Notes under the pieces: model-generated
What the model saw: only the letters and a program-made list of their open reading frames with translations
Told to the model about the DNA's origin: nothing
Databases searched by the model: none
Made by a program: the position numbers and the translations under genes
Part shown: piece by piece, positions 31,019 to 55,715 of the stretch
Layout of the letters: every line of letters starts with the position of its first letter
Position numbering within the stretch: the stretch's first letter is position 1
Assembly: GCA_030704615.1 (NCBI GenBank)
Contig: CM060731.1
Location: forward strand, 34,224,001 to 34,288,000
DNA length: 64,000 bases
Direction of reading: 5' to 3'
DNA from: Takakia lepidozioides
Lineage: Eukaryota > Plantae > Bryophyta

Positions 31019-33177
31019 TCGCCCCCCTAGCTGGTGCTTAGGTCCCTCTAAGTCCAGGTAGCCACAAGATGTCACTACAAGAGATGAGCGTTTTTAGGAC
31101 TACGGCTTTGGCGGAGTCATAAAAACTGCACTAGGTACATGACTACAGAGCGCTGAAATGCATTACAGTTTTAGTTTTATGACTTTGTAGTAATGGATAT
31201 CACTACATGACTCCGGAAAGTTAGGGAGCATTGGTCAAACATTGTTGACCATGATGACAGGGATGGTTTATATGACTAGTGTGATATGTTTGACTACACG
31301 TGGACGACGTTTCATGGAATCTTATGACTACAGACACAAGCAGCACACACAAGAGGTCATCGGTCAAATCCTCCATGGGTCAGGACAAGTCAAGGACAAT
31401 GTGGTAGGGCACCTTCTTCTTCAACCTATTTCAGCCTGTGTTGCCCTCTCATCAGACTCGGCCGCAAGATGCATATTGAATTCTGTAAGTTAAGTCGTTG
31501 GGTAGATCTGTGGTGGTTTGGAGTGACTTTGGCAAGTTACTGCCAGTGTGGCAGCAGGCAAGTATCCAAAAACATATAATAGAGGTGAGGAGAAGCTTTG
31601 GGGTGAACACTTTCCGACCCCAATGGTGGGACAATGGAGACAAAAATGCGAATGCCTGTTGGACTACAGAGAGAAGCAGATGCAATTCAGATTGTGATAA
31701 GTAGGGTTGGGGTGTTTTGGGGAAGAACTCCACACCAGTATGGTTGGGGTGTTTGCTGGTAGAATTGTAGGCTGTCAGAGGCATGGATAGCTGAAGGAGC
31801 AGGGATAGAGTGTGGGTCCAGATTCATCCAAGAGGGCTGGATTTCAAGCTCCACATTACCTATGATTCCCTGTGGAAGGATAGTTACAAGAAACCTACAT
31901 GGGTAGATGGTCAACTGGAAGCGGCATGCTGTACTATATGTCATTCCAGAGACTGTCATTGTTGGTCCATGTGTTTTACAACAATGCTATCAATATAAGA
32001 CTTCTGGTTCGCATTGGAAGCTCAATCCCTGTAAGTTCATTGTGTGTGAAGCTCAAACTTGTGATTTGAAGGATCTTGTAGCCAAGTTCATTCAACCGGA
32101 AAGGAAAAATTCTGAAAGCTCCCATATTTGATGTGGGCAAGCTTATGGAGGTAAGACTGGTTTCATATTTTCTTGGTTGGTATGCTGTTGGTTGGCTTCT
32201 TTCATTTCACGTGTGTAGTGGAAGGGGAGAAGTACTTTCCTAAGTTCTGCTGCAACATTATCTTTTTCCAGCCTAGATGTTTTCGATGGATACAAATTGA
32301 AGTGCTTTGAATGTTGCTGCAATACTATAATAAAGTGGAGGGTGCTGAATGCAGTTGGCCTTGCTTCGTGCAGGCATAATCCAGGGAAATGTGGACATAG
32401 CTGAAACCTAATGATAGCATTTCCAGAGGACGCTGTGGATGGCCTCACAATCCAGCATGCAAAATCCATGACAATGTGGAGATGGCTGAATGGGCAAACA
32501 GGTTAAGTGGTGAACAAGCCACGTCACTGGTACATAGTTGCATGCTTACATAGTAAATGAAAGCGTACTATATGTCATTCCCGAAATTGACCATGTTGGT
32601 CCATGTATTTTACAACAATGCTATCAATAAAAGACCAATGGTTCGCATTGGAAACTCTATCCCCATAAGTGGCTTGTGCGTGATGCTCAAACTTGTGATT
32701 TGAAGGATCTTATACCCCAGTTCATTGCAGAGGTGATTGGAAAAGACATTGAGAAGGCAACAGCCGTTATCTATAATCTACATATCCCCTTCAATTTGAT
32801 GTGGGAAAGCCGTCTGGCTGGAGGTCTAGTCTCACTTTCACTCATCTAATGTCAGTGTTGTATCCATTGCAATGTGGAAATGTTTGAAACAACATTGGAG
32901 CATTTCCAGAGGATGGTCTGGATGGCCTTTCGTGGCGTGTGCCGAATCCATGGCAAGAAAACATTGCAGGCAGAACCCATGGCAATGGTACCAGCACGGG
33001 TTGGTCCAAAGCCAATTGCAACAACAAATGAATAAAGGGTGCTGAAAGGAAAACACTCCATAATTGATCATAAAATCCAGTGTCCAAGCATGACATCTTA
33101 ATGGGAATGCGAAGGGAGTGTTACCACCTTAAACTATCATGCATGGTCTATACCTGGAGTGCACAAATCGCGCATAT

Positions 33178-36100
33178 CTAATCTTCATCATCCTCATCTA
33201 TGTCTGGGTCACTACATGTATCACTGTCTTCATCACAGACTTGATCTTGTCCAAGGGTTGGCTGAACATCATCACCACGTATACGGGGTGCTCGGAGGTA
33301 CAAGGAGGCCACCTGCTCTGGAGTAACCGGTACCGCTCGGCTGCATGTTGGGCCATCAGTAACCAGAGTCTCCTCTAGTCTTTGTGGGGCTAACAATCCT
33401 TCCACTTCCGCCACATCATCATTATCAATTGATATGTCGCAGACCACTCTACGTGCTCGGGGGCTCTTCTCCAGGACGACTTTCCACCCCGGCTCCTTCA
33501 CACAATCAGAAAAAAACACTTGATCAACCTGGCCAGGAAACACAAAAGGTTGCTCAGAAGGTGGAAGCATACGGTTAAAATTGACAAGTGTGAAGCCAAC
33601 ATCATCCTGCTTCATTGACATAGGTTGACGACCCACGCGACTCGCCCGTACCCACGAACACAAAAACACTAAAGGCTGTGTTTGGCCATAGTCAATTTGC
33701 AAAATCTCCCTTATAAGACCCACATATCTTGTAGGTTCCTCCATGTCATTGCCTTGTTGGTAATGGGCTGGTGCTGGAAAACAGATGAGACTCCACAATC
33801 AAAAGACACCATACTTGTTGTGTTCATGCTGGGGGATGTAACCCTGTAATGGTTACCATACACTGTCATACTCTTGAATGACAGGGCAGTAAATGATGGA
33901 GGCCTTGAAAGATCCAGTAATTCCTCACGTGTTGTAGGATCAAGCCCATCTGATTGAATTGAGAGATGATCCCGTACACCTTGAGGGAGCCAAACATCAA
34001 ATGGAGGACAAGGATGCAAATCAGGAGGGTACTGAATTGCCGTGGGATTGCTCATGCCTTCCAGCCCTTGCTCCTCACGAAACAAGCGTCGTCTGGCTTC
34101 TATCCGTGTGGACTCTGCTTCATATATCCTGTCACAATCCGAGGGTCAGCCAGGAGATTGACAGAGGTGGCGTGGGAGATTTGAAAAGACGCCATATGCC
34201 AACTAATGATAAATGACTAAAACTTGGAAATCTGAATGTCAATGAAGTAGATTTCTTACCCCAACATGACTGACAGACGAGGATGGTTCTGAATGATGTA
34301 CTCATGTACAATATCACACAGGTCATTCAATTTTCGGGCTTTAGAACTTCCTTCCACAACTTCACGTTCCACAGATTCTGCCTCATCTGCATCCCACACC
34401 CTTCGTACACTTCCATCAAATCCTGCCATATACTCTGTGCAAAAACCCAATGCTTCTTCAAATTGGTATCCTTCTGCCATGCTCCCCTCGGGCCTTGCCA
34501 TATTTCTTACGTAGCCCTTCATATCTTTCATTGCCCGCTCCATGGGGTACATCCAACGAGATGCTACGGGCCCGCATAAGTACAACTCATCCACTAGGTG
34601 AACAACCAGATGTGTCATCACATCAAAAAATGATGGTGGGAACTCCTTCTCTATAAGACACAGAGTGAGAACTGCTTCAGTTCTCAATTCCTCATACTCT
34701 ACAGGATTCACCACTTTTGCACACAACTTCTTAAATACACGACATACTCGCAAAATGGCCCTTCGAGGACCACTTGGCATGAGCCCACGGATAGCAAGCG
34801 GTATAATTTGCTGCATGAGCACATGATAGTCATGTGATTTCATGCCAGACAACTTCTTCTTCACCACATGCTTTTTGAAAGCTGATGCGTAGCCTGTTGG
34901 CACTTTCAAGTTCTGCACAATCTCCAGAAAGACTTGTAACTCAGCCTCAGTGAGGACATAAGGGGCAGGAGGCATAATTAACGTATCTGCTCTGTCAGGA
35001 TCACGTTGTAGCCACAATTCCGGGCGCATCCCAAGTAGCTCCAAATCACGGCGAACTTTCAATGTGTCTTTCTCACCAAAGATAGTTTTAATAATATTTT
35101 CAGCCAAGTTCTTCTCGAAATGCATTGCGTCAAACGTGTGGCGGATGAGGAGACCCTACAAAAATGAACACATAAGCAATTGAGCATTTACTCATCACAA
35201 TTTAAACAGAAAACGCAAAAATGTACACAGCCAATTTAAAGGCCATGAAGGAATTACCTCCCAATAAGGTAAGACATATAAAATTGACAATCGCTTAACT
35301 CCATGAGTTTTTGCTGGGTCTGTCTTGCTATCTGGCGTCCCTCCGTTTTCCACCCATGCAGTGCGAGCAGTTGCAAGGTCCTTGATTTGTCAGTAGCTCT
35401 TCCACTATGGGCATCAGGTAAACATCTACGTTGTCCGAGGTAACAGACTCCTTACCAGGAATCAGTAGTGCTAACATGACAAAGAACTTTTTGGTCATTA
35501 ACCACGGAGGCAGATTGTAATTGACCAAGAGAACGGGCCATGTGCTCCAACTTGTGGATTGAGCTCCGTAGGGATTTACACCGTCTAAGGCCAATCCAAA
35601 TCGCAGAGATCATGGCTCTGCAGCAAAATCCGCAAATGTGGTGTCAATGTGTCTCCATGCTTTGCTATCAGCTGGATGTCGAACCAACCCATCCTGGCTC
35701 TTATGTCTGTCGTGCCATGTCATGAGGTTAGCGATCGATTTACATCGGTACATACGTTTCAACCTTGGAATGACAAGGAAATGTCGCAATACTTTCTTGG
35801 GCACACTTCCACGACCTGGAATGTAACGGGAACTGCGGCACACTGGGCAAATGTCTACATTCTCATACTCCCCACGGAAGAGTACACAACCACGCTCACA
35901 GGCATGAATCATGGTGTACTGCAATCCCATCTTGGCAATCATGGTTTTTGCTTCATAGTGAGTTTTCGGCAATGAATTCTCTTTAGGCAAAAAACTCTTA
36001 CGCAACAATCCCAGAAGCTCATTCACAAATGCATTGGTGCTCTTGTGGGTAGTGCATGCGTTCAGCAACGTCAAAGTTGCTTGCAGCCGGCTGATGGAGC

Positions 36101-37014
36101 ACCCTTCAAAAAGTGGACATTGCGACTGTCGGAAGAGTTTATCATACTCGGGATCAACATGCAGGTGAGCATTCTCATCAAATTCATTGTCTCCAGAATC
36201 GTCGAGATCATCGTCATGATCGGCAAATGTGTGATCGGTTCCACCATGAATGGGGTCATCTCTGTTTGCATCTGCAAAGAGAAACGCTTCCTGCAATGCA
36301 CGTTGCATTTCTACCTCCAATCCACCACTCTCATCTACGTTCTCTGTGACATTGGGCTCCCGCTGTGCCGCAGGGCCTTCGTCTTCATCATCTGAATATT
36401 CACATCCCTGCATCCCAATAGTCATCTTGTGAGTGGACCAACAACGATGTGACACTTGTTCATATTATGACATAGGAGGCACGGTGACGTTGTAGTGATG
36501 TAGTCATATTTACGTATGTATCTTATGAATATACACCCAATCAAAACACAACATTTGTAACCATTGAAGTCATAGTTGCAGTCACTTACTTAGTCATATA
36601 TGACTACATGACTACACATGACCAATGAAAACACGATATGTGCATTAATTAAAGTGATAACGGAAGTGGCGTAGTCATAGTCACGTCTATATCTTATGAC
36701 TTCTTGACTACAATCACCCAACGAAATGTCGACATGTGGAGAAGAGGATCGTTGCATTCAAAATTCAAACTAAAGTGCTGAAGGGAAAGTGGCGATCTTA
36801 CCGGAAGAGAACAGCGTTGGAGAAGAGGATCCCTCCCGTGTATCATGTAATGATTCCTCACTGTTTCCAACAACAGTACTTTTCCTCCATGACACTCATC
36901 GCAGTTGCATAGCATTTTTGTATGCCCATTCCTTGTGGCATAAGCTTCTTCCATTCGCCATAGACGGTCATCTATTCTACGCCTACGCATCCGGTCGCCA
37001 CCTGCGCTATACAT
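33178..37014 (-). pseudogene. CACTA TnpD-like transposase (Transposase-associated, Transposase_21, DUF4218, DUF4216), disrupted
   Basis: KMLCNCDEC...VRNHYMIHG; YTMIHACERGCVLF...CPVC; HPADSKAWRHID; DGVNPYGAQSTSWSTWPV; MHFEKN; GMKSHDYHVLMQQ; RWMYPMER; EQPFVFPGQVDQVFF. Frameshift at ~35610 and internal deletion at ~35390. Confidence 0.93.
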
Positions 37015-37619
37015 GCTTTGAACGTCACCCCTTCCCTCTTTGCATGCTACGCACAGTGCATTGTCTCTAGTTTTGCACCAGCTGCCAATGTGCTATTTCT
37101 ATATCTATAGTATACTATAAGTATCGTTTCTGAGTATCCATGGTGAAGCGGAAGGTCTTCGAAGTGACAGTCCCTCTCACTGAGTACGAGAAGTTCCGAG
37201 AGCGCCGGATTGCTGCCATAAAGGAGGTGGAAGCAACGTTCAAGCAGTCGATAAATGGGTGAGTTTAGTTCCTGACTTTGGATACCCACCCACTAAACTT
37301 GCGATTCGCCTTATCCTCTAACCTTCCTACAGCGATCATAAGCTTCATAGCACAAATGGGGGCGAGTAGCTGCGACTTGTACAAACAGAGAGGCAAACAA
37401 CATGCAGTGAGTGACGATTAGGTTTGAGGAGGGTGTGTCATTAGGCGGGAGATGTCCGCCGTCATTCGTGGGCAGCCATTACGTCCTGGTAGGGTGCGGC
37501 TGTGGTTCAGCGTAGGCTTAAGAGTATTAGGGTATGTATGCTTGCATTTGTTTGTGATTGTTTGAGAGGGAGGTCATGGAGGTGTTTGTGCAGGCTTGCG
37601 GGAGCGAATCGCCCTCGCA

Positions 37620-40600
37620 AGCCATGCGCTCCGAAGGAAAAAGCTAGGGATCAAGGTCTTGCAAGGCAAAGTGCCAGACTGAAGACGATGAAGACTACGA
37701 TTCTGCATGAGGGCTCTTCTGAGGACGATGAGGACGATCCACTCCTCCCACGCCAGTGCGAGGCGAGTGCGTCGTCGGCGGATGCCACGGCAAGCCGAGG
37801 AGAACATGCCCATGCTCATGTCGCAGGACAAAAACGCCCATCATCTACACTACGAACACCTTCTCCGTCTGTGAGTTATAGTTCTTCACAATGACCATGA
37901 TTCAAATTATGTATGTTTTTGGTAAAATCACGAAGAGATAGGGTATGGTAAGATCATGAAGAGATAGGGTATGTCTGTCAAGACAGGGAAGTTGGACAAT
38001 GCAGGGGTCAGCCAAGGCACAATCACAAATGATTTCCACTAGACAAGTTGAAGTGCCAAAGGCATGATGTCAGGCCAATGTAGACTTCAGGTGTGTTCAA
38101 ATTCTTTCCCCATGAAACCAACGTCCTGGTACTAAGCTACAATGGCTACTTATAGAGATACTTGGGTTAGTTATGCACCCAGAATATCAGTAAAACTTGG
38201 AGGGATACTTCTCATGGACCCATCAGGTTTGTCCATTTGAATTCTTGCTATGGATTTCAGGAACACCCCATACCTAAGAGGGCTCAAAAATGTACTGGGA
38301 GGACATCATTGGGGCCAATCAAATTTGGGAGATTTACTGCCCAAGATCATACTGAGTTTTGGGTAATCTTGTCTTTACAAATGATATGTGCTTCCAGTTT
38401 GTTATATTGAATTCAAGGATTTGCTGCTTGCTGCCTATATGTATGTGTAATCACCCACATTGTACTGGGGGAATTTCTTTCAGGGCAAGCACAAGCGCAC
38501 TGGATCCACGATCCCTGCTGCTAGCAATGGAGATGGCGCCCACAAGAACGCAGGAGGTGGCCCTAACTCTCCCATCGTTGTGGGTTCTGTGCCACAAGTA
38601 CCCCCACCTTATTATGGTATGCCTCAGTACCCACAGTCTGGCACTCAGTATGGTCAGGGTCAATATGGTGCTCCTCCATATGGGCAGTATGGCCAGTATC
38701 CTCCTCCACCATATTTGCCACCCCCTAATAGCTATGGGGGTGGCAGGCCACCGGAATATCCTCCTGCTTATGGACAGTATGGTCCTCGGCCTTCTGGCCA
38801 ACAGCCATGGCCACCAGTCCCTACTTGGCAGGATCCTGCTTTGAATTCTCCTGAGCGCACGGAGGTCTCTGAAGAGGGGAGGGTGCCGTTTCAAAGAATG
38901 ATAGAACCAATGCTTTAAGGAGGGCTAATAGCTCAGCCAAAATTGAAGCTGCCAAGGTGAAGGAAGAGAGAATAGCTGCAGGTCTTCCTCCCACGGTGAT
39001 TTTGACGAACCTCAAAGGAGCCCCGTATGGTCAGACCCGGAATGTATGGCACGCTGCCCTTAAAGGACAGGCTTATCGCAAGCTAGATTGTTCCCTTGCC
39101 ATCAACAACCAACCTGATGAAGTTGTATACGAAATCAGAGATCACCTGGCTAAGCTATTTTCATATACGCCACACAAGTTAAAAGACTTCCACCTAAAAC
39201 AAACAATTGGCAGAATAATGAAGAGCCAGCGTTATGAAGCACACACTGCGTGGTTGGGTGGTAAGGGGAAACCCATTACTGTATCTGACGAGGTATGGAA
39301 CAAGCTTGTAAGTTACTGGCAGACAGAGGTGTTCCACAAAGTATCGAGCAACATGAAGAAGGCAAATGGTGCAATTCAGAATCCTACCAAGACTGGCCAT
39401 GGGAAGGCAATGGTGGAAGCACGCTTGGTAAGTGGCATCATCACGACTCTGTATTTTGTTCCTCATTGAATTGCTATGTGTATATAGTCAGCCCTCACAT
39501 TGCTTACTGACTTGTGGCATGGGTTTGTTTGTGGCATGGATTAATTTGTAGGAAACACTATCAGGGTGCCCTCCTACATTATATGAAATTCAAGAGGGTT
39601 CAGTGTCACGGTTGTCAGCTGGGAGTGACAGGCGGGTAAGTGTGTTTTGCCACGTTTGCTAGAGTGGTTGTTGCATCATAGGTTGCTAGGGTTTTTTTCA
39701 AGGTTTTGCCTGGGTTTTTCTTTCCAATGGTTGTTCATGCTAGGTTTTTGGTTTGATTCATACTGGGCAAGTTTTCATGGATTAGGCAGGAGGGAAGTCT
39801 CGCATATTCTACAGTAGTTGGCAGGATGGATGGCTTGGACAAACTGGTGGAATCACAAGGACGTGACATGGCAGAATTAAAATTACAGATGCAGAGTATG
39901 ATTGAGTACCAGAAAGCCATTGTGACCAGATTGGGGATTAATCTACCAGGCGCAGGACAGTGACATCTACGATGGATACGTTTGCTGTGACAGTATCAAA
40001 ATGTTTGGAATCCCAATTTCAGACGGTAACTGGTGCTCACTCTAAGCCCTTATGTCTTCCTGTCACTGATGATCTTTTGAATTTGACCGAGCAGCAGCAG
40101 GATACAGGGAAGGCCAGCTGTGAGGTACACGTGGAAATTCAGCCCTTGCCACGTACAAAGGCAGTAGTAGCAGTCCAGGGGGCAATGGTGACAGAGCCGC
40201 CGGGCACACCGGATTCTGGTATGCAGGTATGTGGGAGTTTAAATGGGGAGGAAGATGCAGACGGGGACAAAACAAACAAGCAGGTTGCTTTAATTTCTCC
40301 TGCTCACATGTTGAAGCCAAATGTCAGTTTACTTCCTGGACCAACGAGGAAGCATTTACTAATTCTGGACTTAAATGGTCTGTTATGTGAATCTTTTCAT
40401 TCTACTAATGGGTCTGCATCCCTTCCCAAAGGTTTTGTGGGGAAGATGTGTGGCAAGAAGATGATAGTTTTGAGACCACGCTGTTATGACTTTTTGCAAA
40501 AGTGTTGAACACTTTGAGGTGGCGGTGTGGTCTTGTTGCCAAGCTCGCAACTTCTTCCCAACGGTGGACTATATTTTTGCAGCCCACACTAACGTGGTTT

Positions 40601-41713
40601 TCCAGTGGGATGCCCTTCACTGTGACGAGGATCCAGTCCTCCCATGCCGTAAGGGGTCTGATTCAAAGCCATTATATTTCAAGAACTTGTCTACAGTGTG
40701 GGCAGATTGGCCAGAATGGACTTATGAGGACACTGTTCTTGTTGACGACACACCAAGAAAGGCGGCAAACAATCCTCCCTTCAGTGGGATTTTTCCAGAG
40801 CCATGGAAGGTGCAACCAGATTCACCAACTGATGAGTATCTAACAGAGGTGTTGTGGCCTTTCTTGTGGAAGGCATCGAAAGTTGCCAGTATTCCCAAGT
40901 TTTTGGAGTCTCAGCCTGTTTTCGGACAACAACCATACAACACTGCTACTGTGAAGGTACAAACATTCTGACAGTGCTCTAGAGGCTACAATTTTGTGGG
41001 TTCATTCATTGCATTGCTTTCCTGGATGCTTCTCCTCAGTTGCTTGATTAATGCTAGGTTTTCTTTGCAGTTTTCATGTTGGCTTTTTTGTTTGATTCAT
41101 ACTTGGATTTTGTTTCTATTCACTATTCCTATTTGCTCATTGCTTTCCTGGTTGTTCTCTGGTCTGTGACACAGGAACTTGTGACAAACAAAGGTGATAT
41201 TGTCGACAAGCCGGTACAGACGAGGGCAAGAGTGTCGACCCGGCGAGTAGCCCCCAAAAGAGGTCTCACAACCACTGGAGACTGCAAATGGGAGTAAGTC
41301 CAGGCCGTTGTCTTGTCTGTTTTATTTTTATCAACCTTGGGGCTCTCTTTAATTCGCAAATGTTGAGTGTCCTAGTCGTGTGTATGTCATGGGTTTTCAC
41401 ATCGTTCTTTTTGTGTGGAGTTGGGATCACAGTTCAGGGTGGGTGACGAGGTTCGGCTGTTGGATGTGAACTCCAAACGCAAGAAATGTGGAGTAGGACT
41501 GATTGTTGCTCTTCAAGGTGCTGTGGTGGGTTACGAGTACCCTGCTGTGCCCCTTGATTATGACTGTGTGTACATCAAAGAGGCATGTGTCAGTAACACC
41601 CCTCTACCATATGTGAATGGTGTTAGGAAATAGACCGAGTTGGGCAGGTGGTTGGCCAGACAACACTTTGGAGTCTAAAGTTACTGAAACTTATGGAGCT
41701 GCGGAAGGGATAG
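37620..41713 (+). pseudogene. CACTA TnpA-like multi-exon gene (Transposase_24-like + FCP1/NIF-like domain + Tnp1/EnSpm-like C-terminus), frameshifted
   Basis: PITVSDEVWNKLVSYWQTEVFHKVSSNMKKAN (Ptta/EnSpm type); P/G/Y-rich N-terminal exon; C-terminal VGDEVRLLD...GVGLIV...VPLDYDCVYIKE...TPLPY. Divergent from TnpD. Exon boundaries are approximate. Confidence 0.7.
40345..40960 (+). pseudogene. FCP1-homology (NIF) HAD-like phosphatase domain inside the TnpA-like gene
   Basis: RKHLLILDLNGLL...IVLRPRCYDFLQKC/VEHFEVAVWS...KPLYFKNLSTVW...DTVLVDDTPRKAANNP; one frameshift at ~40500. Confidence 0.85.
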
Positions 41714-42985
41714 TCAGTATTGCACTGTTTAACAGAGTTCTTGATTCTAATAGCACTAGAACATACTAGCTACAACAATTCAGCCCATGTGTGGGCTTGC
41801 TTGTTTTTGGCTGGGCCTTTTGAGGCATGGATTTTTGACCTTGTGGCTTTTGAGGTGTCCATTGGGACATTGGTCTCATTTGGATTTTTGTAATGTGAGT
41901 TATAGGGCTTGTATTGCCCTGTAGTTGACTTTTTCATTCTCCTTGTGTTGATAGTATGCAGGAGGGATCCATTCTGTTTTCATGTTGGAATTTCACCATG
42001 TAATGAAGATTTTAAATCATTTAATTCACTTTCATTTTAAATAATAATATTAAAAATAATACCATTAAAAAAAAATTCCAAGGCTGCAATCTCCTGTTCT
42101 TTTAAATATTAAATGAAAACTAAAAAATAAAATATGAACATTAAAAATATAAACTATTTCGGAAAACAATCTTGATGACACGTGGCATCACTCTTGCTCA
42201 AACCAGAACATGTGGCAGTATATGACACGACATTCTTTATCCATATTTTCACCACGTGTAAAGATCCGTAGTCATATATGCTAGTCATATATTTTGTCTG
42301 TGTGCCACATGTCGCATCTCAAGTGCAACAGGTGTCCCACTAACAACTCTCCATGTAGACATCCCTGTAGTCATATGAGCGAGTCATGTAGTCACCACGT
42401 GTGAAATCTGCCATAGCACACGTGTCCCGCTAGCGCCTCTCCATGTAGGCATCACTGTGCAGACATGTAGTCATATGATCATGGCAAGAAGTCGTGACAT
42501 GTCAAATTCGCAGTGGCGCACGTGTCCCGCTAAAGCCTCTCCATGTAGGCAGCGCTCAATAGACAATGTAGTCATATATTAGTCATATAGTTGTGACTGC
42601 AACCCTCTCTGCAGCAGGACTCCAGGTGCCACGCAAGCAATCACGGATATGACTTGCAAAACGCAGTCCTAAAGACTAGTCGCTATGACAGGGTTTTTTT
42701 CACTACAGAGTGATGTAGTCATGAACGCATATAAGACTGAAAAAATAGTCATATGTGAAGTCAAAAAAATGCTCATCTGTTGTAGTGTGTAATAGTGACC
42801 ATAGCCTCACTAAGTCCTCCATCACTGTCCCTACTACACTCAAACTCGATAGATCAAGAAGCCGGGTGCAAGAGTTGCCCCATCGTTAGTCGCCGTCTTG
42901 CAACCTGTGAACTGGAGCCTGGGATCTCATACTCCTATGAGCTTGGCCTCCCATGTCTTGTTAGCTGCCTCTAGTCATGTCCCCA

Positions 42986-43320
42986 CTATCCCAAGCAGTG
43001 TGGACATAACCAATCTCCATCAGGAACCCTCTCAAGAGGTGGTGTTAAGCATCCCATATACCAACCTCTTGAGCATCGATCACACACCAGCATGGTGGCT
43101 GCCCCTTTGGCAGACCCATAGAGCATGCACCTCAAACCTGCAGGTACCACTGCCAAGTTTGGGTCAACTCTGCCATCAACAGTGGGAAGGTGACATGGCG
43201 CACAATTACGCACATGGTCTTTCCAAGTCATGCCATCCCGACCCTCCAAGATCAGGACTCCTGAGGACAACACCTCTCGAACCCTCAGAATAACACGCCC
43301 TGCAGTGACATCCAGGGCCC
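42986..43320 (-). pseudogene. Integrase C-terminal tail with PHD finger (gypsy copy 2)
   Basis: GRVILRVREVL...KDHVRNCAPCH...CMLY...MLVCDRCSRGWYMGCLTPPLERVPDGDWLCPHC; homologous to 9090-9370. Confidence 0.88.
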
Positions 43321-43589
43321 TACCTGCTCAGTCAATGACAAGGCCTCATCTTGCCCCATCATCTCATCCTCGAGGACTTCCTCAACCTGAGAAAAATCCC
43401 CAGCCTCATCCATCACCGCCACCTTGGCTGCCAACTCCCTCTGAACCTCGAGCACCTCCCACGTGTGCCATGGATGCCTGCACCCCGTGGTCCTCACATG
43501 CTCGCCCCCACTCACTGCCTGTACCATCTCGGTAGGCAGAGAGACCATCGAGGGAAGTGTACTCCGCACTCTGCATTGCTCAGCTATAG

Positions 43590-44540
43590 CCAAGCTGATA
43601 ATCCAGGTCAAGCAATTGAGATCCATTGCTTGCCCCAACACCTGACGACGTGGTGCCTCAGAAAGAGATGACACCGCCGTGGTACCAGTGGTAAAACCCA
43701 TCGCCCGCTCACGCTCGTCAGCATTAGGCTCCACTAACTGCTGCAACTGAGCATCCCACAGGAGGCCACGTCCACTATCCCGGAAAACATGCAATCCTGG
43801 GAAGCTGAGTAGTGTAGGTAATGCTGCTCGTGGTTGACCCACCCCGTTGACCACTGCCTAAGGCAAACGGTCATCGTGTCTCACACGCTGAGACTGCCTC
43901 CCTGTGTCCAAAATGCTATCCACTATGAGGTGTGCTGCCGCTGCACCCCATCAATTCACGCTTTGAGTAGTGCGGGTGACATCAAGTTAGTCCACCATAG
44001 CCGTGGACGATGAGCCCGTGACCCCATTGTAGCTGCATCCAGCAACACTACTGACCCAAGCCACGACCGGACTTGATGCACACTGGCCATCACCCTGACC
44101 TGAGAATCGCCCATCAGTGGCACATTCTCCAAGATGTATGCTGGAGATACAGCTTGATGAAGCTGCAAGTGGCGCAAAACCCGCACCATCTCCCAAAACA
44201 GACCCGACCTCGAGTCTCGTAATCCATTGCTATGCCCGGCTGATGAATGCCCTTGGCAGGGCCAACCTGCACTACCAGATCAATGGAGCCAAACGCTCCA
44301 AATCCTGCGCCCCCAGCAACGAAATGTCTGCTGGCAAGGCCTGCTGATATCCATGACCGCAGACACCGGCAACAACTCAGGGTACTGCTGCACCCAACTA
44401 AGCATATGACGAGAGTAGATCGTGCAGTCTCATCATTCTCCACATACAAGTAACGCCGTACTCGTACACCTGCTTGTAGAACAGCAGCCAATCCGGTGTT
44501 GATCCCTCCAAACAAGTCCAGAAGGCAAATGCCTTCATCC
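43590..44540 (-). pseudogene. DNMT3-like C5 cytosine DNA methyltransferase domain within the gypsy polyprotein (frameshifted)
   Basis: Motif I ICLLDLFGGINTGLAAVLQAGVRVRRYLYVE; IV IDLV/AGWPCQG; V SGLFWEMVRVL; VI YILENV; VIII LDAATMGSRAHRPRLWWTNL; IX ERERAMGF; X RRQVLGQAM. Motifs are in canonical order. Confidence 0.92.
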
Positions 44541-44949: not shown

Positions 44950-47434
44950 CTGACTCCTCCAAAAAATCCAGGGTGAAGCCCATGGGGTACAACACTGCTC
45001 CACCAACCAGGACATTATACGAGACCGCGTCTGTCACAATGGCCTTGGCTTGCATCACTGAGCCATCTGTAGGGTGATCCGGCCGTAGTCCGATAGCCAA
45101 CTCACGCCGTGTCATGCCCCGAGCCTGCTCCGATCCTCCTCCGATCCTCCCAGAGACGTCTGTATCTGGAAAGGACAAGGCTCCATATCCGCCTCCGTGA
45201 GGCCCAAGCCTGCAATAGCAGCTCTGCCCAACATGAATGGCTGAGCTCCTGAGTCCAACAAGACCCGCAGTGGCCAGTACCTCTTGCCTGCCGGTCCACT
45301 GAAACAAAAAATGCCATCCTGGTTGTCGAACATGACAACTCCAGGTGTCACCATGGCGCACTCAATGGCTGGCCTAGTTGGCAGCTCCATCAACCCGGCA
45401 GCTGCAACTTGCCATGGCACCGTCGTGGCAGTCTTGACCCTCAAATCCGAGGATCCCTCCGGCACTACACCTCGCACTATCTCCACAGAAGATGAAGTAA
45501 CCTCCCCACTCTCACAGAGTGTAGCTGCCAGCCTGAACACCTCAGCTGGTCTTATCCCCAGCGTCGCAATCATGGTAGCTGAGAACAATGGAGCCTGACA
45601 CACAGATGTGGCCACTCCCAGCAGCACACTAGTTGTCGTAGCCTTGATAGCACTAGGTAGTGGTGCTACCCGTGTAGCTCTCCCCAATGGCGTAGTAACC
45701 TCCGCCTCAGTAACAGTCGGGCGAGAACTAGGTGCCATGGATGGCGTCGACACTGAATGTAAATGACTGAGGGAGCCTAGCCTGATGGCTTGCCTCCCCA
45801 CGCTGTGGATCCAACTCCACCTCTGTACCTCGTGGCTCAGGAACTCGTGCTGCTCCTCGAGTCACAGCTGCAGCAGACTCCACCTGCACTAGGTAGTGCT
45901 GCTCCACACATGAATCCCATGCCTCCCATATCTCCTCCCTCAAGAGCAGGAGGTGGACCATCCGGCCTTGGAGTCGGTACCACCTGAGCTGTAGCCATGG
46001 CAGCGAGCCTCTGCTCTAGCTGCTGAAGCCGGTTGGCCATGCCTTGGTCAACACCCGGACCTCCGCGTCCTTGGCCATGTTGAGCTTGCCCTTGGCCTAC
46101 ACCCCGTGCCTGGCCACCTCGTCCTCTTTGGGCTGCTCCCCCTCGCCCCCGGCCACTATTGTTCCCTTGGAACTGGTCTGGGCGCAACTCGGGATGCAAA
46201 CCATAACACTGGGCCTCTTCATGCCCGTGCTTGCCACAATGCCCACACTGCAACTGTGCAGGCTATGAATGTGCCGGCCCTTTGCCTCCCTCTGGACAAT
46301 CCTTCTTGACGTGGGGTCCTCCACATGTCCACACACCACATCTGCCCGTTGTTGGCCTACAAATGAAGGGAGAGACCCTGCATCTGAGGTCCTCTCTGCC
46401 CTTCCCTGAGCTTCACCTGAGCCCCCTAGTTGCCTTGAGCACGTTGAGGTAATGGTTGGCTAGGAGCACCACTACCCCATGGTGTCTCCTTAGCGAATCC
46501 CACCATGACCATTCGTTCCTCCACCATGTTGAGCTCTATCCGCTCTGCCAGCAAAAACACATTTGTTAAGGTGGGTTGGGCCGCTTGTAGGAGAGTTGCA
46601 TCCCGCACCCTTCTCCTCAGCTCCTTGTCCAATATCCCATACCAGAATTGGACTGCCTGAGCTTCCGTAACCCCTTAGGTTACATTTATCAAGCGCCTCA
46701 TGCGAGTGAAAGCCTCCCTCAAGCTCTCAGTAGGCTTCCGTTGGAACTCTTGCAAGCTCCGCAACTTCTCTGTCCTCACCCCTTGGTAGTTCCCTCTCAA
46801 CTCTTCGAAGAACTCCACAACAGGGTTGAAGGCATGCACGGGTACTGGTGCTGGTGCGGTAGTGGCTTGGATGGACGTCGTAGCTACGGTACCACCAGTC
46901 CTACTAGTCCCACTGCTGCTTGCTGAAGCTGCCGGTGCAGCGGCAGGTGTAGCCACTGCCCTCATGACTTTAGTGCCCCTAGTGATGGAGACATAGTTGG
47001 GTGACCAGTACATCCTCCACTCCTCGATCTCAACCTCATGCCCCCGCCTAAACTCATGGTAATCATCCATACGCGGCCCCTCAAGGTGCTGAAACAGCCC
47101 CTTCCATGCCATGAAAGGCGTAAATAGTTGTGGATTGCGCATTTGCTGCAAATCACACCAACTACCAAACTCTTGGATAAAATCATCCAATCGATGGGCC
47201 CACCGCCCCAGAGTACCTTCGTGGCCCCTTGGTAGCTCTATACATCTCCTCCATTGTGTCCCACAACAATGGCAAGGAAACAACTTGCACCGCCGGTATG
47301 AGTCCTCCTGATTCACAATCCGAATCAGAACCTTCCGTAGTAGAAGACAGGAGGTGAAGGTGGCCTAAACCGCATACCTCGTCTCGTGTACCCACTAGTA
47401 TCGCTAGTGCTCGAACCGGCTCTGTCCCCAGCAA
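44950..47434 (-). pseudogene. Gypsy gag (with Zn knuckles) and aspartic protease
   Basis: LDDFIQEF...LRSLQEFQRKPTESLREAFTRMRRL (retrotransposon gag); CGHCGKHGHEEAQC knuckle; RVLLDSGAQPFMLG...YNVLVGGAVL (protease). Several frameshifts and stops. Confidence 0.88.
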
Positions 47435-48139
47435 CTAGTGGCACCTCCGTGTTGACACTCAACCGGTCATGAACATGTTCCTAACCCCTTCTCCACAAGG
47501 TAACCGGGTAGAGAACCTGTTGCGGCTTATGGTTTGGAATACTACGTTTCTAACATAGTCTACACCTGTACCTGCATCCACCGCAAGCACTCCTATGGTT
47601 GGCTGGTCATCACCTCCAACCTCACCACAGGAGAAACAATGATGGTTTGGTTGGTCATCACCCCAGCCTCACCATTGACAGCATGCTCTAGGACTAGCCG
47701 GTGATCAAATCCGGACCAATCACCTATAAAAACAAGCGTCCACACAAAACTAGCATGGTGCACAGTCAAGCATGCAAGTATGGAGGGGATCCAAACACAA
47801 GAAATCAGAACGACAACTCCCCACACCAAAAACAACTCCACGGTGCTTGCTCCTGCAATGACACCCCAAGCCCAAACCCGACTGACTCTTGCCCTCCACC
47901 TACGGAAAGGTCTTGGCCTAATGAGAGGGTGGAAACTACAAGGAAGAGAAGTTAAAGCAATGCCTAACCCTAGCATGCCCTCATCCCAACACTCTTCCTC
48001 TCCTCTCTTTTCCCTCACTTGCATGAACATGGGGATATCATGAAGATACTCCTCAAACCCCCTCCACAAGCTTCAAAATTCGGCCTTCAAGACCACATGC
48101 CAGTCCTTAGGCAGTCCACCAGTGCCTCCACGAGTCAGC

Positions 48140-48810
48140 ACAGGCCGTCCACAGTCAACACAGGCCACCACAGGCCACACAGGCCAGCCACACAGCCTCA
48201 CTGTCCACAGCCACCCCAGGCCACAGCCTGTCACAGCCTATCACAGCCCTACACAGGTCACAGGGTCACAGCCCCAAAGGCCACATGTCACAGCTTGTCA
48301 CAGCCCCCGGCCACAGGTCACAGCCTGTCATAGCCATCACAACCCCAAAGGCCACAAGCACAGCCTGTCACAGCCCCTCACAACCCCATAGGCCACAGGG
48401 CACAGCCTGTCACAGCCCCTCATAGCCCGTCACAGCCCCACAGGCCACTGGCACAGCCCGCCACAGCCTGTCACAGCCCCTCACAGTCCCATAGGTCACA
48501 CGGCACAACCTGTCACAGCCCCACAGGCCACATAGCTCAGCCTGTCACAGCCCTATACAGGTCACAAGAGTCACAGCCCCAAAGGCCACCAGCCCGTCAC
48601 AGCCCCACAGCCACAGGGCACAGACCCTCACAGATCACAGCGTCACAGCCCGTCACAGCCCCACAGCCACAGGCACAGCCCACCACAGCCTGTCACACCC
48701 CGTCACAGCCCCACAGCCACAGGGCACAGCCTGTCACAGCCCACCACAGCCTGTCACAGCCCATCACAGCCTGTCACACCCGTCACAGCCCCACAGGCCA
48801 CTCATGACAG
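48140..48810. repeat. cacagcc/tgtcacagcc minisatellite in the gypsy 5' leader
   Basis: Dozens of cacagcc(c/t)gtcacagcc variants. Confidence 0.9.
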
Positions 48811-50153: not shown

Positions 50154-50168
50154 CTCATCTTTCTCGAG
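50154..50168 (-). promoter_or_regulatory. Self-priming primer-binding site (non-tRNA)
   Basis: Minus-strand CTCGAGAAAGATGAG abuts the LTR end and is complementary to LTR-internal CTCATCTTTCTCGAG (15/15 in array units, 14/15 at 50324-50338). Confidence 0.8.
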
Positions 50169-50485
50169 TGATAAAGAAGAAGAATACAAGCATGAGCTCA
50201 CAAATCTGAAGCATAAACTCATGCATATATAACCTCATCACTCAAATACAAGTCAAGCCAAGTGCACCCCACGCCATGGGGAATCCACACTACGGCGCCA
50301 TAGCTAGGTGCGGTGAGGCTCAAGTCGAGAAAGATGAGCCTCCCGCGCTTGCCGTGAAGATAACCACTCCAGGGCCTAAATCTGCCTTGACCCCTGGATT
50401 GACACTTGGGCCAATCCCAAATGTCAATATGTAAAAGCTAGCTATTTTCTAGCTAGTTTCACACTAGTGGTAAAATAACTTGACA

Positions 50486-53400
50486 GGCCGGGTCCAACTG
50501 AAGGGAAGTTATATCAGAACTTCCCAGCAGGAAGAAGGCCTTTTTTTTTAGCCAATCTCGAGTGGAGGATCCCAGCTTGTCCCGTCCTGATCATGGAGGG
50601 GAGAAGGGGCCGAAGCCTTAGAGCTGGTGTCTTGGCTATGATTCTGTATGCGACATTGAGGAGAGTGATTGGCCTGTAGTTGCTAATCGATGCCCTATCC
50701 CCTTTCTTGATCAATAGTAGGGTAATAATTCCTTGGTTCATAGCCTCGGGCATGAAGCCTTGGCTTTTAATGGCGTTGGCCATATCACAGAAGTCCCCCG
50801 AGATGGAGATCCATAGAGCTTTATAGAATTCCAGAGGCAGGTAACAAACTCCTTACCAGGAATCAGTAGCGCTAACATGACAAAGAACTTTTTGGTCATT
50901 AACCACGGAGGCAGCCAAGGAGTCTCGAGGTTTTCTACGAACGATGGTATTTTGAGGTGTTCCGAGTTAAGCTTGTAGACTCCTCTTCCTCTAGGTTGAG
51001 AATTAGGAAGCTTCATTGTGGCCGAAACAAGGGCATGATCGAATCCTAGGGGTATGGGTTCTTGGGGATAGTAGAAGGTGCTTGGAGATAGGGAGAGGGA
51101 GGTATATAATCGATCTAGTCTAGCCATGCTAAGGTCGCTGATATCTCTGTTGTTGGACCAGGTAAAGAATGGAGAGGTTCATGATGGATCTATCGGTGGA
51201 CGGTCTATTTCTGCTAGGCTATGCGTTTGAGTCAGACATTGCCAGGTCAAATATTCCTCGAGGCTAAGGTGATGCGAGCCTCTGCCTTTCCTATCACATT
51301 CGTTTTCCACCATATTGAAGTCTCCATCCATTACCCGTCTGTTGATGTCTTGATGTTGAGACATTAGCAGGCGCATTCTGTCCCAGAGTGCTGCTCTGGG
51401 AGCTGGTTCATTTGGGGAATATATGTTGATGAAGCCGATTGGTTCAGTGTCATTAGGGAAAAATAGAGAGCAAAATTGCCCTCTCCCATCCTCCTAGACT
51501 TCATCTTTGAGGAGAAACTGCTTAAGGGAGGGGGTGAGGAGGATGGTTGTGCCTCCTTTTGAACCCTCATAGGAAGGTTTCCAAAGAGTGGAATCTGTAG
51601 GCTAGAGCTGGTTTGTAAGGTTTCTAATTTTCCTATTGCATAGCTTGTGTTCTTGAAGAAAAACAATAGAGAGGGAGGGGAGCAGTGGTCTCAGCCACGC
51701 AGATAGCTTGATTTTCTTCAAGGCCATCTGATCCGACCCGAGGCCATGGATATTCCAGGAGGATAAACTAACCTGCATCTGGGGTTGTCGATAGGCTGAG
51801 GGGAGAAGACTCATTTGATGGCCTGGATGCAAAGAATCTGAATTTGATTCTTTTGTCTGACGGGATGAAGGAGGGTGACCAATAGTGGCTGATGGATGCA
51901 GTGAAAATTGGTTTTTTGAGATGGACAAATATGGCTGGGGTGCTGAGAGAGATGTTAAGAAGGATCCCCGTGCAGTCAAGAAGTATGAATCTTCCTGTGT
52001 GCTGAAGGGATGTCTTAATTGAGACTGGACAGGGGAGAGGCAGGTTGTGAGGTTCAAGGATTCGGGCGAAGTTGTCTTGCGAGGGTGGGTAGGTTATGGA
52101 TGGTAGAATCTTCCGAGAGGATGGGAGGGACATGATAGGGCGTAGACATAGGATTTTGCATTTGCTGCGGAGATTAGGATTAACATAGAAAAAAAGGATA
52201 GGAATGGACCAAGCAGGGGATAGGGGACTTACAGAGAGCGGGAGGGATGCATCAGGAGCAGGAGTTGGGGAAGGTAGAAGAGCGAAGGGAACTGTATTTG
52301 CCCTTTGTTGCTGAGACGAGTGAGGCGCTTGCTGGGTTTGGAGCTGAGAGACCTGCAGGTCCGAGGAGCTGGAGGTCGAGATCTCCCCAAAGGGGTCATA
52401 GGAGTGGTCGATGAAGCCCGCTGGGCGTTGCTTTTTCCATGCTCCATTTTCTCCCCCCTTTTCTGTTTCGATGATGGCTTGAAGAATTGAGAATGTGTTG
52501 CTAAGAGTGTCTGAGGATCTAGTCAGAGACTTGGTGTAAGTGTGTGGACCAATAAGTGATCATACTGAGCCCAAACTCCTGGCAGAGATGTGCTGGTGTT
52601 ACCAAGAAGCTTGTCTTCGTCCCTAATGGCCAGAATATGGGTGTTGGGGGTGAGATCTTCGCAAAGGCCTAGGAACTCCTCCGAGTAAGCCCCCCATGTG
52701 ACTGCAGATGTGGATGGTAGAGAGTATAGAGGGAGGTTAGCTTGGAAGCAATCATTTATTTTGTTGCATAACGTTGGAACTGGGTTGTTGTCCATAGGGC
52801 TCTTGGAAATGAAAGATTGAACATCTCGTACCGAGATCGCTGTATCCTCCGAAACCTTGACTGAAAAGTAATTTCCTTGCTCATCTATAGGTAGCATGAT
52901 AAAATCTGGCAAGATTTTGTCCGCTGGCATCACCACCACTATCTTCACGAAACTCATTGGGCCTTGATGCAATAGTAGCCCTCCTCCAGGCTGGGTCTTC
53001 TCTCGATAATGTTGCACTCATGCTTGGGTCCAAAGTAGCCAGACACCCCATGAATGCTCCGAAGAAGTTTCCAATCGTCGGCAGGCAAAATAAATATTGA
53101 TCTGGTATGTAGGGTAGAGATATGATCCGAGGGCTTCAGATCTTACCATTTATGTTGCCCATGTTTTTAGACCATGGAAATATGTTGACGTTGAATCCAT
53201 GCAGAGTAGGATTGAACGTCAGCGCTTTTTCTTCTGCTTCTTTAGAGTCCAGGAGAACCGAGAAAAAACCACGACCTCTGGGTTGACATAAATGATGGTG
53301 CAGGTCTCCAGATCCCCCGAGGTGAGTTATGGCCCAGTTGCGGGCATGAGATCTGCTTACCTTCTTGCCTAGGAAGTGTAGAAGGATCCCATTACTTTCA

Positions 53401-53580
53401 TAGTGCTCCACGTTGAATTTGATCCGATTGATCTCGACTGCCACCAAGGGCTGCATGTTTTGCAGGATTGCAGTATCTGTCGAGGAGGTCAGCGTCATGG
53501 GCCGCCTGAGGCGAATCGCCGGGGCTGGAATCTTCTTCGTTGCTATCACAGTGGGTCGTTGGGTTTCCTGGTTTGTCATG
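50486..53580 (-). mobile_element. L1-type LINE-1, 5' part: ORF1 (DUF4283-like), APE endonuclease, RT start; RT core deleted
   Basis: RGRGFFSVLLDSKEAEEKAL...NIFPWS; SWNIHGLG, FLQEHK, GDFNMV, ARLDRLY, FDHALV; KKGDRASISNYRPITLLNVAYRIIAK. Confidence 0.88.
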
Positions 53581-55715
53581 CGTTGTGAGGAACGGTTGAA
53601 TGGTAGGTGAAAGAAGTATTGCAGTACCTCCTTTCGTTCCCGTGGAAGTGGGTTTCCATAAGGAGTTGGCTAATGGCCATAGATAATCAGAGAGGCTATC
53701 TATTTTCCCTTGATCTAGTTTATGCTCCTGCAGAAATATGACGGAATGATTTGCAAGGTAGGGAGTTAGCCAGGTTTTAATTTTCAGCCTTTTTTAGAGA
53801 AGCTGGGTCTGCTCCCAACCCTCTTATATTCCATGAATGGAGGTTAAAGATCATTGGCAGGTCGTGGTAGGCTGAGGCTGACAGTCTCATTTGATAGCCT
53901 AGAAGTGTGGTAGAAGAATTTAACCCTACTGTCTCTTGGTCGCAGGAAATTTTTCCAGACATAATTGTCCGGGGGCTTGCGAGTTTTGTTCTGGATGAGT
54001 ATGAAAACCCCTCTTGGTTTTGTGTTTTTGGGTAGTTCTTGGGATGAAAGGAATTGTTCTGCAGACACTGTGGAGATGGTTACAGATAAAACCGAGGCGT
54101 CAGCCGGGAAAAACACAACGTTGAAAAGATCGTTAAAACCAGGGTATCTCTCACTGAGTGAGCCATCAGAGGGAAGAGTCCCAAAGGGTATGTTTTCTGG
54201 CAAATCAAACACTGGCAGCCTATGTCTGACCTGCTTCCCCCCCAAGTATCTCCCTTTCTCGCATAACATCCAACATCTAGCAGGGTCCCCAGATAAAACC
54301 TGATAAATGAAACAGGGTGAGAGAGAGGATGGTACCTTGTTTGGGGAAGGTGGAGAGGAGGGAGTTAAGACCTTGGGTGGAGAAGTCATTTGAGAGTTCG
54401 GTAGCGAATCAGCCTGGGTTGTGTCAATGATTGTTGGGGAGGATAATTGTTTAGCTCCTTTTACCGAGTCCATTATGTTTTGATTCCCCTCCTGCGTAGA
54501 AGATTCCACCTGGGAGTCTGAGGAAGAGTGAGAGTGATCTGCCCGCCTGGTGCCATTAATATGATCTCTTGTCCTTTGAACCTCCATTCTGTAATTTTCC
54601 CCATCCACTTCAGAGTCCAAGTGGGCTCCCAGCAACTGAAACCCATTTATTGGGGTATCCTGGTTTCGAATTTGCAAACTGTGACTCCCTTTGGGGGCTG
54701 AGAGCAGATCCTCATAAGTCCAGATAGCCTTGATCGGTGGAGGAGAGGCATAAATTTCTGCATCCTCCATCAGGGCTAGAATGTGGGTTGAAGGTTTGAC
54801 ACTAAGTCCAGGATAGTCTTCCAGGTATGCCCCCCATGAGATTTTGGTGAGGGTTGAAAGTGGATAGTGTTTTTGTGGCTTGAGGAAGAACTGCTGAATT
54901 TTCCCCTTGAACAAAATTTGCGAATTGGTATTGGGTGGGTTGGATTGCAGGAAATGCTTGAGATTTGCTGATGTTATCCATAATGATTCGACTGTTTCCC
55001 AATCGTCTGATGTAATCAGGATAGCCGGGGGTTTGTTTTTTCGAAAGATCATCAAGGGTGTCACACATGCTACCTTCGGGGAGTCGACAATTTCTAGTGC
55101 TGAGCATCCCACCAAGTTTAGGTGTGGGAATGAGCCGATTTGGAGACAGTTGTTAGCAAACCTGGAATTACATGCAATTCCAGTGGTGATTTTGGGGAAG
55201 GAATTGCTGGTAGGAAGTGTCAATCTGGCTACTCTTGGGGGTGAGGTATCTTGATGCTTTCCTTTTCCTTGGCCGATAGATGCCCCCTGCTGCTGTGTTT
55301 CTGTAAGTTTTCCTTTCCCCTTTGTGATGGCATTCATCTGTTGCTGGTGGGCCATCAACTCTTCTTGCATGGGATCCTTGGGTGTCTCCTCCCTTCCGGG
55401 GCTTTGCCATGATCTGAGCTGTAGAGGGTCATTTGGTATATTGTGTAGGGCTTGTTGCCCGCGGGGAATTGTTGAAGGCCCGGGTTGTGGTGTGGGAGAC
55501 TTTAATTCCTGCCAGTGATCTGCTGCTGATTCTGGGCCCCCTCCTTGTTCTTGTCTCCGTGGTTTGGATGGGGTCATGGGCTGGGTTTGCTTGCGCTTGG
55601 CTGCCAGACAGTCGATTTTGAGATGTCCCAACTGGCCACAGTTGAAGCAAGCCGCATAGGTGGTATCCTCTATGAGTTGGATTGCAATTTTGTGCCTTAT
55701 CCCTACCCAACTCAA
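53581..55715 (-). mobile_element. LINE-2 inverted 5' segment: ORF1 C-terminal half (CCHC knuckle) and ORF2 start
   Basis: CFNCGQLGHLKIDC; MIFNLHSWNIRGLG...IFLQEHKL...KGGTAILL ending at ~53581. Confidence 0.85.

Follow-up and report, generated by a model that had tools for sequence, protein, structure and literature searches.

A putative DNMT3-class methyltransferase in a land-plant Ty3/Gypsy retrotransposon family with apparently permuted repeats

A DNA methyltransferase (DNMT) domain encoded within a retrotransposon raises the question of whether it is a working part of the element or a captured fragment and, in the former case, at which step it would act. The locus considered here lies in a window of 64,000 nucleotides (the whole stretch of DNA that was analysed, to which all coordinates without a locus name refer), for which the original prediction, drawn from the letters alone, proposed a DNMT3-like cytosine methyltransferase inside the polyprotein of a land-plant retrotransposon. 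DNMT-carrying retrotransposons have been described from algae, and the family described here is abundant in land plants.

The window element and its methyltransferase domain

The whole element occupies positions 25201-50485 on the minus strand, begins with TG, ends with CA and is flanked by the 4-bp target-site duplication GGCC on its 5' side (50486-50489, minus strand) and its 3' side (25197-25200, minus strand), within a LINE. It consists, in this order, of a repeat A1, a long leader, gag-PR-DNMT, a linker, an integrase tail, a PHD finger, a CACTA insertion, a purine tract, a repeat B1, 2 nt and eleven A-B units. The leader contains short-period repeats (48100-48800, minus strand; repeat families D18 and D19) and is followed, on the same strand, by a decayed gag (46393-47254; 57% identity to residues 11-282 of the Marchantia protein P0016), two CCHC zinc knuckles (46185-46331; zf-CCHC at E=1.2e-7 in the relative L025) and an aspartic protease (PR; approximate bounds 44950-45380, DSG motif at 45261-45241), for which the Asp_protease_2 match in the relative P0003 is weak (E=0.0012). 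Gag, zinc knuckles and protease are colinear with Marchantia Mp_4g09160.

The DNMT domain spans 43600-44536 on the minus strand and holds the motifs of a C5 cytosine methyltransferase in order, namely motif I DLFGG (44518-44504), motif IV AGWPC with the catalytic PC retained (44270-44256), motif V (44222-44205), motif VI ILENV (44135-44121), motif VIII AHRPRLWW (44015-43992), motif IX ERERAMGF (43716-43693) and motif X LGQAMD (43638-43621), all on that strand. A stop-free piece of it (43959-44279) matches PF00145 with 44.9 bits (cut-off 22; E=1.4e-11), a match whose absence would have told against the original prediction. Frameshift-aware alignment gives 229 of 320 identical residues with P0003 and 224 of 315 with P0016; identity to three references amounts to 66-72% across 315-320 codons, and the domain is colinear with these references, intron-sized gaps being absent. 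The predicted succession of motifs on one strand, downstream of the protease and free of introns, was thereby borne out (44536-43600), while the wording 'right after the protease' holds for the order only, as about 250 codons lie between the protease motif and motif I, with a linker of about 130 residues. The domain is broken by five frameshifts (at about 44416, 44354, 44292, 44272 and 43930) and two in-frame stops (43958 and 43860), with about seven further frameshifts and three stops from gag to PR, in agreement with the view that this copy is non-functional. The window element is a dead copy of a DNMT-carrying Ty3/Gypsy family, an identification that can be held with high confidence. The CpG observed/expected ratio, which is 0.63 for the window DNMT, 0.47 for the whole window and 0.33 and 0.76 for two relatives, is uninformative.

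Downstream, the linker (43318-43599, minus strand) is cut by an internal deletion eight codons short of the family's conserved stop, the position of which in the window's own family was read from the loose end of one contig (X12). The junction at 43317-43318 has removed the stop, reverse transcriptase (RT), RNase H (RH) and integrase (INT) core, leaving an integrase C-terminal tail (43124-43317, minus strand; found after the rve core in L054 and L064) and the PHD finger that ends the polyprotein (42995-43123, minus strand; PF00628, E=4.9e-8). The retrotransposon order expected to follow the DNMT is thus broken in this copy, with no RT after the domain. Contigs of the same organism diverge from the window sequence on both sides of 43318/43317 (47 depart at one side and 28 at the other in run X1), so undeleted copies exist; 0 contigs bridging the junction occurred among the 21 pieces listed (6746 further pieces exist). 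These departures tell against the proposal, based on even depth, that the deleted form is a non-autonomous subfamily of its own. Run X1 placed 76,010 contigs over 7.9 kb of the element, covering gag, PR, DNMT and PHD to a comparable depth, which points to a very large family, this depth being no measure of copy number. At two of the DNMT break sites an indel relative to the window accounts for 11-77% of depth, depending on the run, so these breaks are not common to all copies. Two runs only guessed to be RNA yielded 3 and 2 contigs at 90-95% identity, which does not establish transcription. An independent deletion from DNMT to integrase, resembling that of the window with a different point, was seen at L027:13472-13458.

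The 3' untranslated part is interrupted by a CACTA DNA transposon of 11.7 kb (31073-42787; 3-bp duplication ACA) containing pieces of DUF4216, DUF4218, Transposase_21 and Transposase_24 as well as a NIF-like phosphatase ORF at 40474-40968 (E=6.6e-9). The clusters nearest to its proteins are from Streptophyta and the DNMT groups with bryophyte proteins, which supports the anticipated land-plant setting indirectly. The LINE into which the element inserted (50490-56000 and 24800-25196, minus strand) displays a CCHC ORF1 at 53847-55757, an RT start near 50700 and, read by eye, a Cys-rich tail near 24950, most of its RT seemingly having been lost. Elsewhere, the window contains another RT (56599-57743, plus strand; RVT_1, E=1.4e-16 and 1.9e-12) and a stand-alone mannose-binding B-lectin ORF (16784-17305, plus strand; PF01453, E=2.9e-7), whose best named matches are actinobacterial at <45% identity and Selaginella at 42%, most proteins recovered by the search being bacterial or unnamed (28-52% identity).

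Class, conservation and placement of the domain in its family

Searches against solved structures with the relative L025 gave DNMT3A at E=1.2e-11, the 4onj entry (the same matched stretch as the DRM2 entries) at 3.8e-5 and HhaI at 8e-4, and such searches ranked DNMT3A/B/C above DRM-type and bacterial enzymes. Foldseek with a predicted model returned top matches that were all DNMT3, the AlphaFold model being weak (mean pLDDT 59.6; residues 177-277 <50) and the fold alignment giving only 15-18% identity to DNMT3A/B. Both approaches place DNMT3 first, as originally predicted, and by these comparisons the predicted class is DNMT3, closer to DNMT3A/B than to the DRM, DNMT1/CMT, DNMT2 or HhaI types. 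With a relative's DNMT as query, the methyltransferase of the phage Epa40 scored 60.0 bits against 47.6 for DNMT3A, and this phage enzyme itself matches DNMT3B at 110 bits; since phage enzymes score as high as DNMT3A, the term 'DNMT3-like' does not establish an origin from a host gene. The Epa40 enzyme (Pseudomonas phage; L081:274-1080) reaches 110 bits to human DNMT3A/B and 54 bits to HhaI.

The DNMT domain is under purifying selection. Comparing the window with L003, L014 and L054, dN is 0.24-0.25 and dS 2.2-3.2, while dS is saturated against L025; bootstrapping places pN/pS of the window DNMT at 0.22-0.35. Between L025 and L003, dN/dS equals 0.20 for the DNMT, 0.15 for gag and 0.19 for PR, and near copies show ratios of 0.46-0.58 for the DNMT and 0.30-0.60 for RT, as expected for decaying insertions. 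The counts exclude stop codons and codons in stretches with <34% local identity, an omission that makes the ratios slightly lower. A dN/dS of about 0.2 or lower between divergent loci disposes of the absence of purifying selection, which the original prediction had named as a possible refutation.

The relatives show the architecture Gag-zinc knuckles-PR-DNMT-stop-RT-RH-INT-PHD. A first protein search retained 55 proteins among 330 candidates, those with names coming from Marchantia polymorpha, M. paleacea, Calypogeia fissa and Sphagnum troendelagicum, and Sphagnum jensenii is present among cluster members. In Marchantia polymorpha, several full-length Gag-PR-DNMT ORFs of 1278-1281 residues are annotated as hypothetical genes, so that what a transposon DNMT does could be tested in a genetic model for which methylation mutants exist. 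Of 7983 candidates in a profile search of long proteins, 59 matched, including Klebsormidium nitens KFL_009030040, Scenedesmus, Chromochloris and Cymbomonas, and 404 clusters were found at E<=1e-30, with another retroelement domain in 95 of the top 150. In metagenomes, 80 loci carry the domain, 38 of them at least 6 kb long; RT follows the DNMT in 33 of these 38 (four end before it and one has a deletion), so that the domain is a stable part of the family and not a one-off, and the proposed search for intact copies found every domain from Gag to PHD in eight of them. These loci were fetched by DNMT patterns, so copies without a DNMT could not appear. The RT of the relatives is of the Ty3 type within the order Gag-PR-RT-RH-INT, and both rve and zinc-binding integrase domains are present; the integrase D,D35E pattern was matched in one of five proteins, L054 being decayed in that region. 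The polyprotein closes with a PHD finger in the window as well as in the loci and most algal relatives.

A DNMT tree of 74 rows, built by a quick method and lacking an outgroup, places the window with the bryophyte proteins (14 rows, SH-aLRT 96), outside a Marchantia-Calypogeia-Sphagnum group (SH-aLRT 97), and gives K. nitens a weak position. The unrooted RT-RH tree (52 rows), from which the window was left out because it has no RT, puts the 13 elements with a DNMT before RT, including K. nitens, on one side of a branch with SH-aLRT 99, the other side comprising 39 elements with the DNMT after RNase H. K. nitens KFL_009030040, which its domains lead us to take for a copy of the previously described KnitGypsy-Dnmt3, likewise has its DNMT before RT, at 44% identity over 73% of the domain. 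Kinship with the Klebsormidium element, suspected from the outset, is supported by both tree and protein match, and the window family most likely belongs to the KnitGypsy-Dnmt3 lineage. As a separate observation, made on P0211, P0215, P0228 and unnamed proteins, chlorophyte relatives have this DNMT downstream of RNase H: it was seen between RNase H and integrase in Scenedesmus sp. PABB004 and many unnamed polyproteins, this position being found in 60 of the top 150 representatives compared with six for the position before RT; the Chromochloris and Cymbomonas proteins fall within the clade with the DNMT after RNase H (43 rows, SH-aLRT 99), and the position of the DNMT changed once on the RT tree.

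About 80 residues past the domain, TAG or TAA stands at one codon in 48 of 52 loci (TAA in one), followed by CAA, most of the 52 being near copies of one family and hence not independent. Two of the other four miss it by one base, another is wrongly aligned and L078 has its stops three codons earlier. The divergent L025 has the same stop context, six Marchantia ORFs end 97 residues past motif X and that of Calypogeia ends 99 residues past it, and one contig of the window's own family reaches its stop eight codons beyond the deletion. DNMT and RT in one ORF, the arrangement of KnitGypsy-Dnmt3, was thus not found in these 48 loci, whereas seven relatives with the DNMT before RT, including Klebsormidium P0201, run from DNMT into RT without a stop. 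Four Marchantia proteins joining DNMT and RT (P0012, P0023, P0042 and P0051) were rejected as evidence for one ORF, as they lack the linker and probably represent spliced gene models. Going by these reading frames, in the land-plant clade the DNMT closes a Gag-PR-DNMT ORF that is separate from the RT ORF, and we infer that the stop is a derived state of the land-plant branch. The original description of an enzyme inside the retrotransposon polyprotein accordingly stands as regards a stable part of the family and needs amending as regards its place, which is the Gag-PR ORF and not the RT ORF. In-frame stops are described as keeping Pol below Gag, normally between Gag and PR; with both PR and DNMT ahead of the stop, the DNMT would be made at one per Gag. 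An ATG lies three codons after the stop in loci other than L025, and the putative read-through motif CARYYA is fully matched by the context of L025 only.

Permuted repeats and a possible route through circles

Repeat A1 (50169-50485, minus strand) is 317 nt long, starts with TG, ends with CA and differs from A2 by four substitutions and one indel, which in this small sample of 317 nt is compatible with decay after insertion. The 15 nt immediately after it (50154-50168, minus strand) form a predicted primer-binding site (PBS) for Tf1-type self-priming, complementary to a predicted self-primer within A (50324-50338, minus strand) at the predicted 5' end of the RNA. At the other end, a polypurine tract (PPT; 31022-31028, minus strand), found in the same context in related loci, adjoins B1 (30821-31021, minus strand), which is 201 nt long, ends with CA and is followed by 2 nt and then by A2, starting with TG. 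Eleven tandem A-B units of 511 nt (one of 510) follow at 25201-30818 (minus strand), identical except for one 1-nt indel, and the last B is the 3' end of the element. All eleven near-identical copies share five differences from A1, and the array is either a young satellite-like array derived from a retrotransposon end or an assembly expansion.

In the window, the self-primer pairs over 15 of 15 nt in A2 and 14 in A1, the best of 40 controls reaching 8 nt. Among related loci, at most one mismatch in 12 nt was found in 10 of 21, compared with 1 of 420 controls, and in nine of those ten the self-primer sits at one position, about 31 nt past a TATA-like hexamer that is seen in 12 of the 21. Pairing in the window and in the related loci involves different sequences. 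The layout of the window element is A...B-A-B, and divergent families show it too. Purine tract and B1 are present at 13 distinct 3' ends, of which five run into A2 (four of them through B2) and eight end at B1. Among seven loci with both ends, an exact 4-bp duplication is present in five, a 3/4 match in one and a damaged end in one, so that TG...CA ends with a 4-bp duplication, as in Ty3/Gypsy elements, occur in the window and in five of seven loci. The joint between A2 and B2 is direct in L009, L039 and L062, has 17 extra nt in L054 and retains the primer-site sequence in L060 and L061.

Two complete LTRs bounded by PBS and PPT do not form the ends of these elements, which are instead the start of A and the end of B. 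With the PBS after A1, the PPT before B1 and the ends elsewhere, the LTR is, as read from these positions, permuted, and by the standard LTR mechanism the LTR copied by RT would be B-A. Since the ends used by the integrase would then lie inside the reverse-transcribed LTR (CA-NN-TG), integration from a circle is suggested, and the permuted LTR may serve as a sequence-level argument for insertion of a circle by a DDE integrase. Structure-based LTR finders would be expected to overlook such elements.

Another element with repeats of this type, older than the first, lies at 8254-15630 (minus strand), with an RT end, RNase H, integrase and PHD at 11344-9000, a purine tract, B1 (8783-8695), A2, B2 (8342-8254) and a tentative duplication TGAT; its 5' interior has been replaced by other DNA, and no DNMT match was found in it. 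The leader repeat of 48100-48800 recurs in opposite orientation at 14883-15024 (plus strand), possibly as the remnant of a third copy, and clusters of direct and inverted repeats are present at 12755-13663 and 7100-8250.

It might be argued that the split repeats arose by rearrangement after integration, or by a DIRS-like route with a recombinase acting in trans, either of which would leave the reading of the DNMT unchanged. DIRS elements use a tyrosine recombinase. In favour of this view, the arrangement A-B-A...B predicted by the circle model, with B before A, was seen at 0 of 20 distinct 5' ends, and the window's eleven-unit array shows repeats recombining in place. This explanation is nevertheless unlikely: TG...CA ends and 4-bp duplications at the start of A and the end of B match the footprint of a DDE integrase, the relatives have rve and zinc-binding integrase domains with no tyrosine recombinase family listed, and divergent families share the layout, which the available text of PMC5890265 also reports for Klebsormidium.

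The account favoured here is that a packaged DNMT methylates the new DNA of a self-primed, circle-integrated element before integration, to which a probability of roughly 0.6 is given as a whole. Gag-PR-DNMT would be the main translation product, with the DNMT packaged at the level of Gag, and RT-RH-INT-PHD would arise when ribosomes read through the stop or re-initiate at the nearby ATG. The RNA would prime itself as in Tf1, giving linear DNA with a B-A LTR, whose ends would be joined into a circle; the DDE integrase would then cut CA-NN-TG at the B|A border inside the LTR and insert the circle, a two-LTR circle giving A...B-A-B and a one-LTR circle A...B. The A2|B2 joint would correspond to the circle joint, and its variability is what is expected of a repaired end-joint. 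In intact copies the DNMT would likely methylate the new DNA, as the original prediction had suggested for the element's cDNA, probably at CG, so that it would enter the chromosome pre-marked; in the available text of PMC5890265, SymbioDIRS-Dnmt3 is reported to give CG methylation in yeast. Foamy virus integrase is described as cutting circle junctions, the site there being the LTR-LTR joint. If the account is true, circles, a form usually regarded as a dead end, would be a normal intermediate of an element with a DDE integrase.

Several observations weigh against this account. Because a two-LTR circle offers a pair of B|A sites, the form A-B-A...B is also expected, and its absence could reflect short-read collapse or A/A recombination; the short A...B copies (eight of the 13 distinct 3' ends) could also arise by chromosomal B/B recombination; the self-primer has two or more mismatches in 11 of 21 loci; and the AlphaFold model is weak, the stop is absent from the seven pre-RT relatives mentioned above and the Klebsormidium domain gave no methylation in yeast (PMC5890265, available text). 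The wider proposition of an old green-algal and land-plant Gypsy lineage in which a capsid-level DNMT3 enzyme marks its own circle, circles being the normal intermediate, is therefore put forward tentatively, as somewhat doubtful.

A different role for the domain would be to bind DNA or to give structure to the particle or the pre-integration complex, with little or no catalysis. Expression at the level of Gag would suit such a stoichiometric role, a clean PC motif is missing in several algal relatives and the Klebsormidium domain was inactive in yeast, a test that its authors call inconclusive and in which human DNMT3B also failed (PMC5890265, available text). As GWPCQ, ENV and AHRxR are retained by the window and by most proteins in a set of 69, and dN/dS is about 0.2 or lower, this is quite unlikely. 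Alternatively, the enzyme could be active and do its work inside the nucleus, where the PHD finger of the integrase would direct it to the insertion site or host chromatin; this draws on the PHD that closes the polyprotein in window, loci and most algal relatives alike, and on the host moss DNMT3b, described as acting de novo in heterochromatin, and becomes improbable because in the land-plant clade the stop splits the DNMT from INT-PHD, which the retroelement protease is expected to cut apart in any case. That the domain is a one-off captured fragment of a host gene without a role, as the frameshifted window copy might suggest, has a negligible chance in view of purifying selection, of the 80 loci, 55 and 59 proteins and 404 clusters, and of DNMT contig cover of the same order as that of gag and PHD in the same organism. 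The favoured reading remains methylation of new DNA by a packaged enzyme.

Comparison with known systems

The closest known system is KnitGypsy-Dnmt3 of Klebsormidium nitens, described by de Mendoza et al. 2018 (PMC5890265, available text) as having DIRS-like repeats and an intronless Dnmt3-class domain under purifying selection, its acquisition being presented as specific to the K. nitens lineage. The window family shares with it the Gypsy domain set, the DNMT before RT and the DIRS-like repeat layout, and differs in belonging to land plants, in its high copy number and in having the DNMT in the Gag-PR ORF, whereas P0201 continues into RT; self-priming, target duplications and an inner attachment site do not appear in the available text of that paper. 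In its main text and three supplement text files 'Marchantia' is mentioned 0 times, and a 2025 paper and bioRxiv 10.64898/2026.05.21.726589 cite the case, in their available text, as 'streptophytes'. 'PHD' and 'methyltransferase' have 0 occurrences in a plant LTR survey, and a literature search with most subscription journals outside its coverage found no report of DNMT-Gypsy elements in land plants and none of Gypsy elements with split repeats. The available text of PMC5890265 counts nine DNMT genes in Physcomitrella, 10 in Selaginella and 33 in Klebsormidium; transposon DNMT ORFs can inflate such counts in plants.

With Tf1/sushi elements the family shares a putative self-complementary primer-binding site after the 5' repeat, pairing with the predicted 5' end of the RNA, as well as a repeat ending in CA and an in-frame stop as a control of expression (available text of 10.1101/2022.12.06.519325 and, for the Tcn1 clade, of PMC6317226). 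Tf1-type elements are described as having ordinary LTRs, a chromodomain and a stop between Gag and PR, in contrast to the permuted repeats, the PHD ending the integrase and the stop after PR-DNMT in the window family. DIRS elements, in which A1 and A2 flank the ORFs and two B repeats surround A2 according to the review file of PMC5890265, and SymbioDIRS-Dnmt3 share the A...B-A-B repeats and a methyltransferase in the polyprotein (available text of the same paper); unlike them, the window family combines an RT of Ty3 type with a DDE integrase and 4-bp duplications. The EpiLTRs described from Euglena and Cymbomonas are likewise LTR retrotransposons with a DNMT and a chromatin reader (10.64898/2026.05.21.726589, available text), yet their DNMT is sister to DNMT4 and accompanied by DAM and a chromodomain, and their authors set them apart from the streptophyte Gypsy-DNMT3 elements. 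Host DNMT3 of non-flowering plants and animal DNMT3A/B resemble the domain in their unpermuted DNMT3-type motif order and provide the best solved-structure matches, the host plant enzyme differing in that it carries DUF3444 (Yaari et al. 2019, PMC6453930, available text), none being listed in the family. In conclusion, extension of the range to land plants would on its own be a moderate advance, and the surprising parts are the placement of the enzyme at the level of Gag and the apparently permuted, self-primed LTR with integrase footprints.
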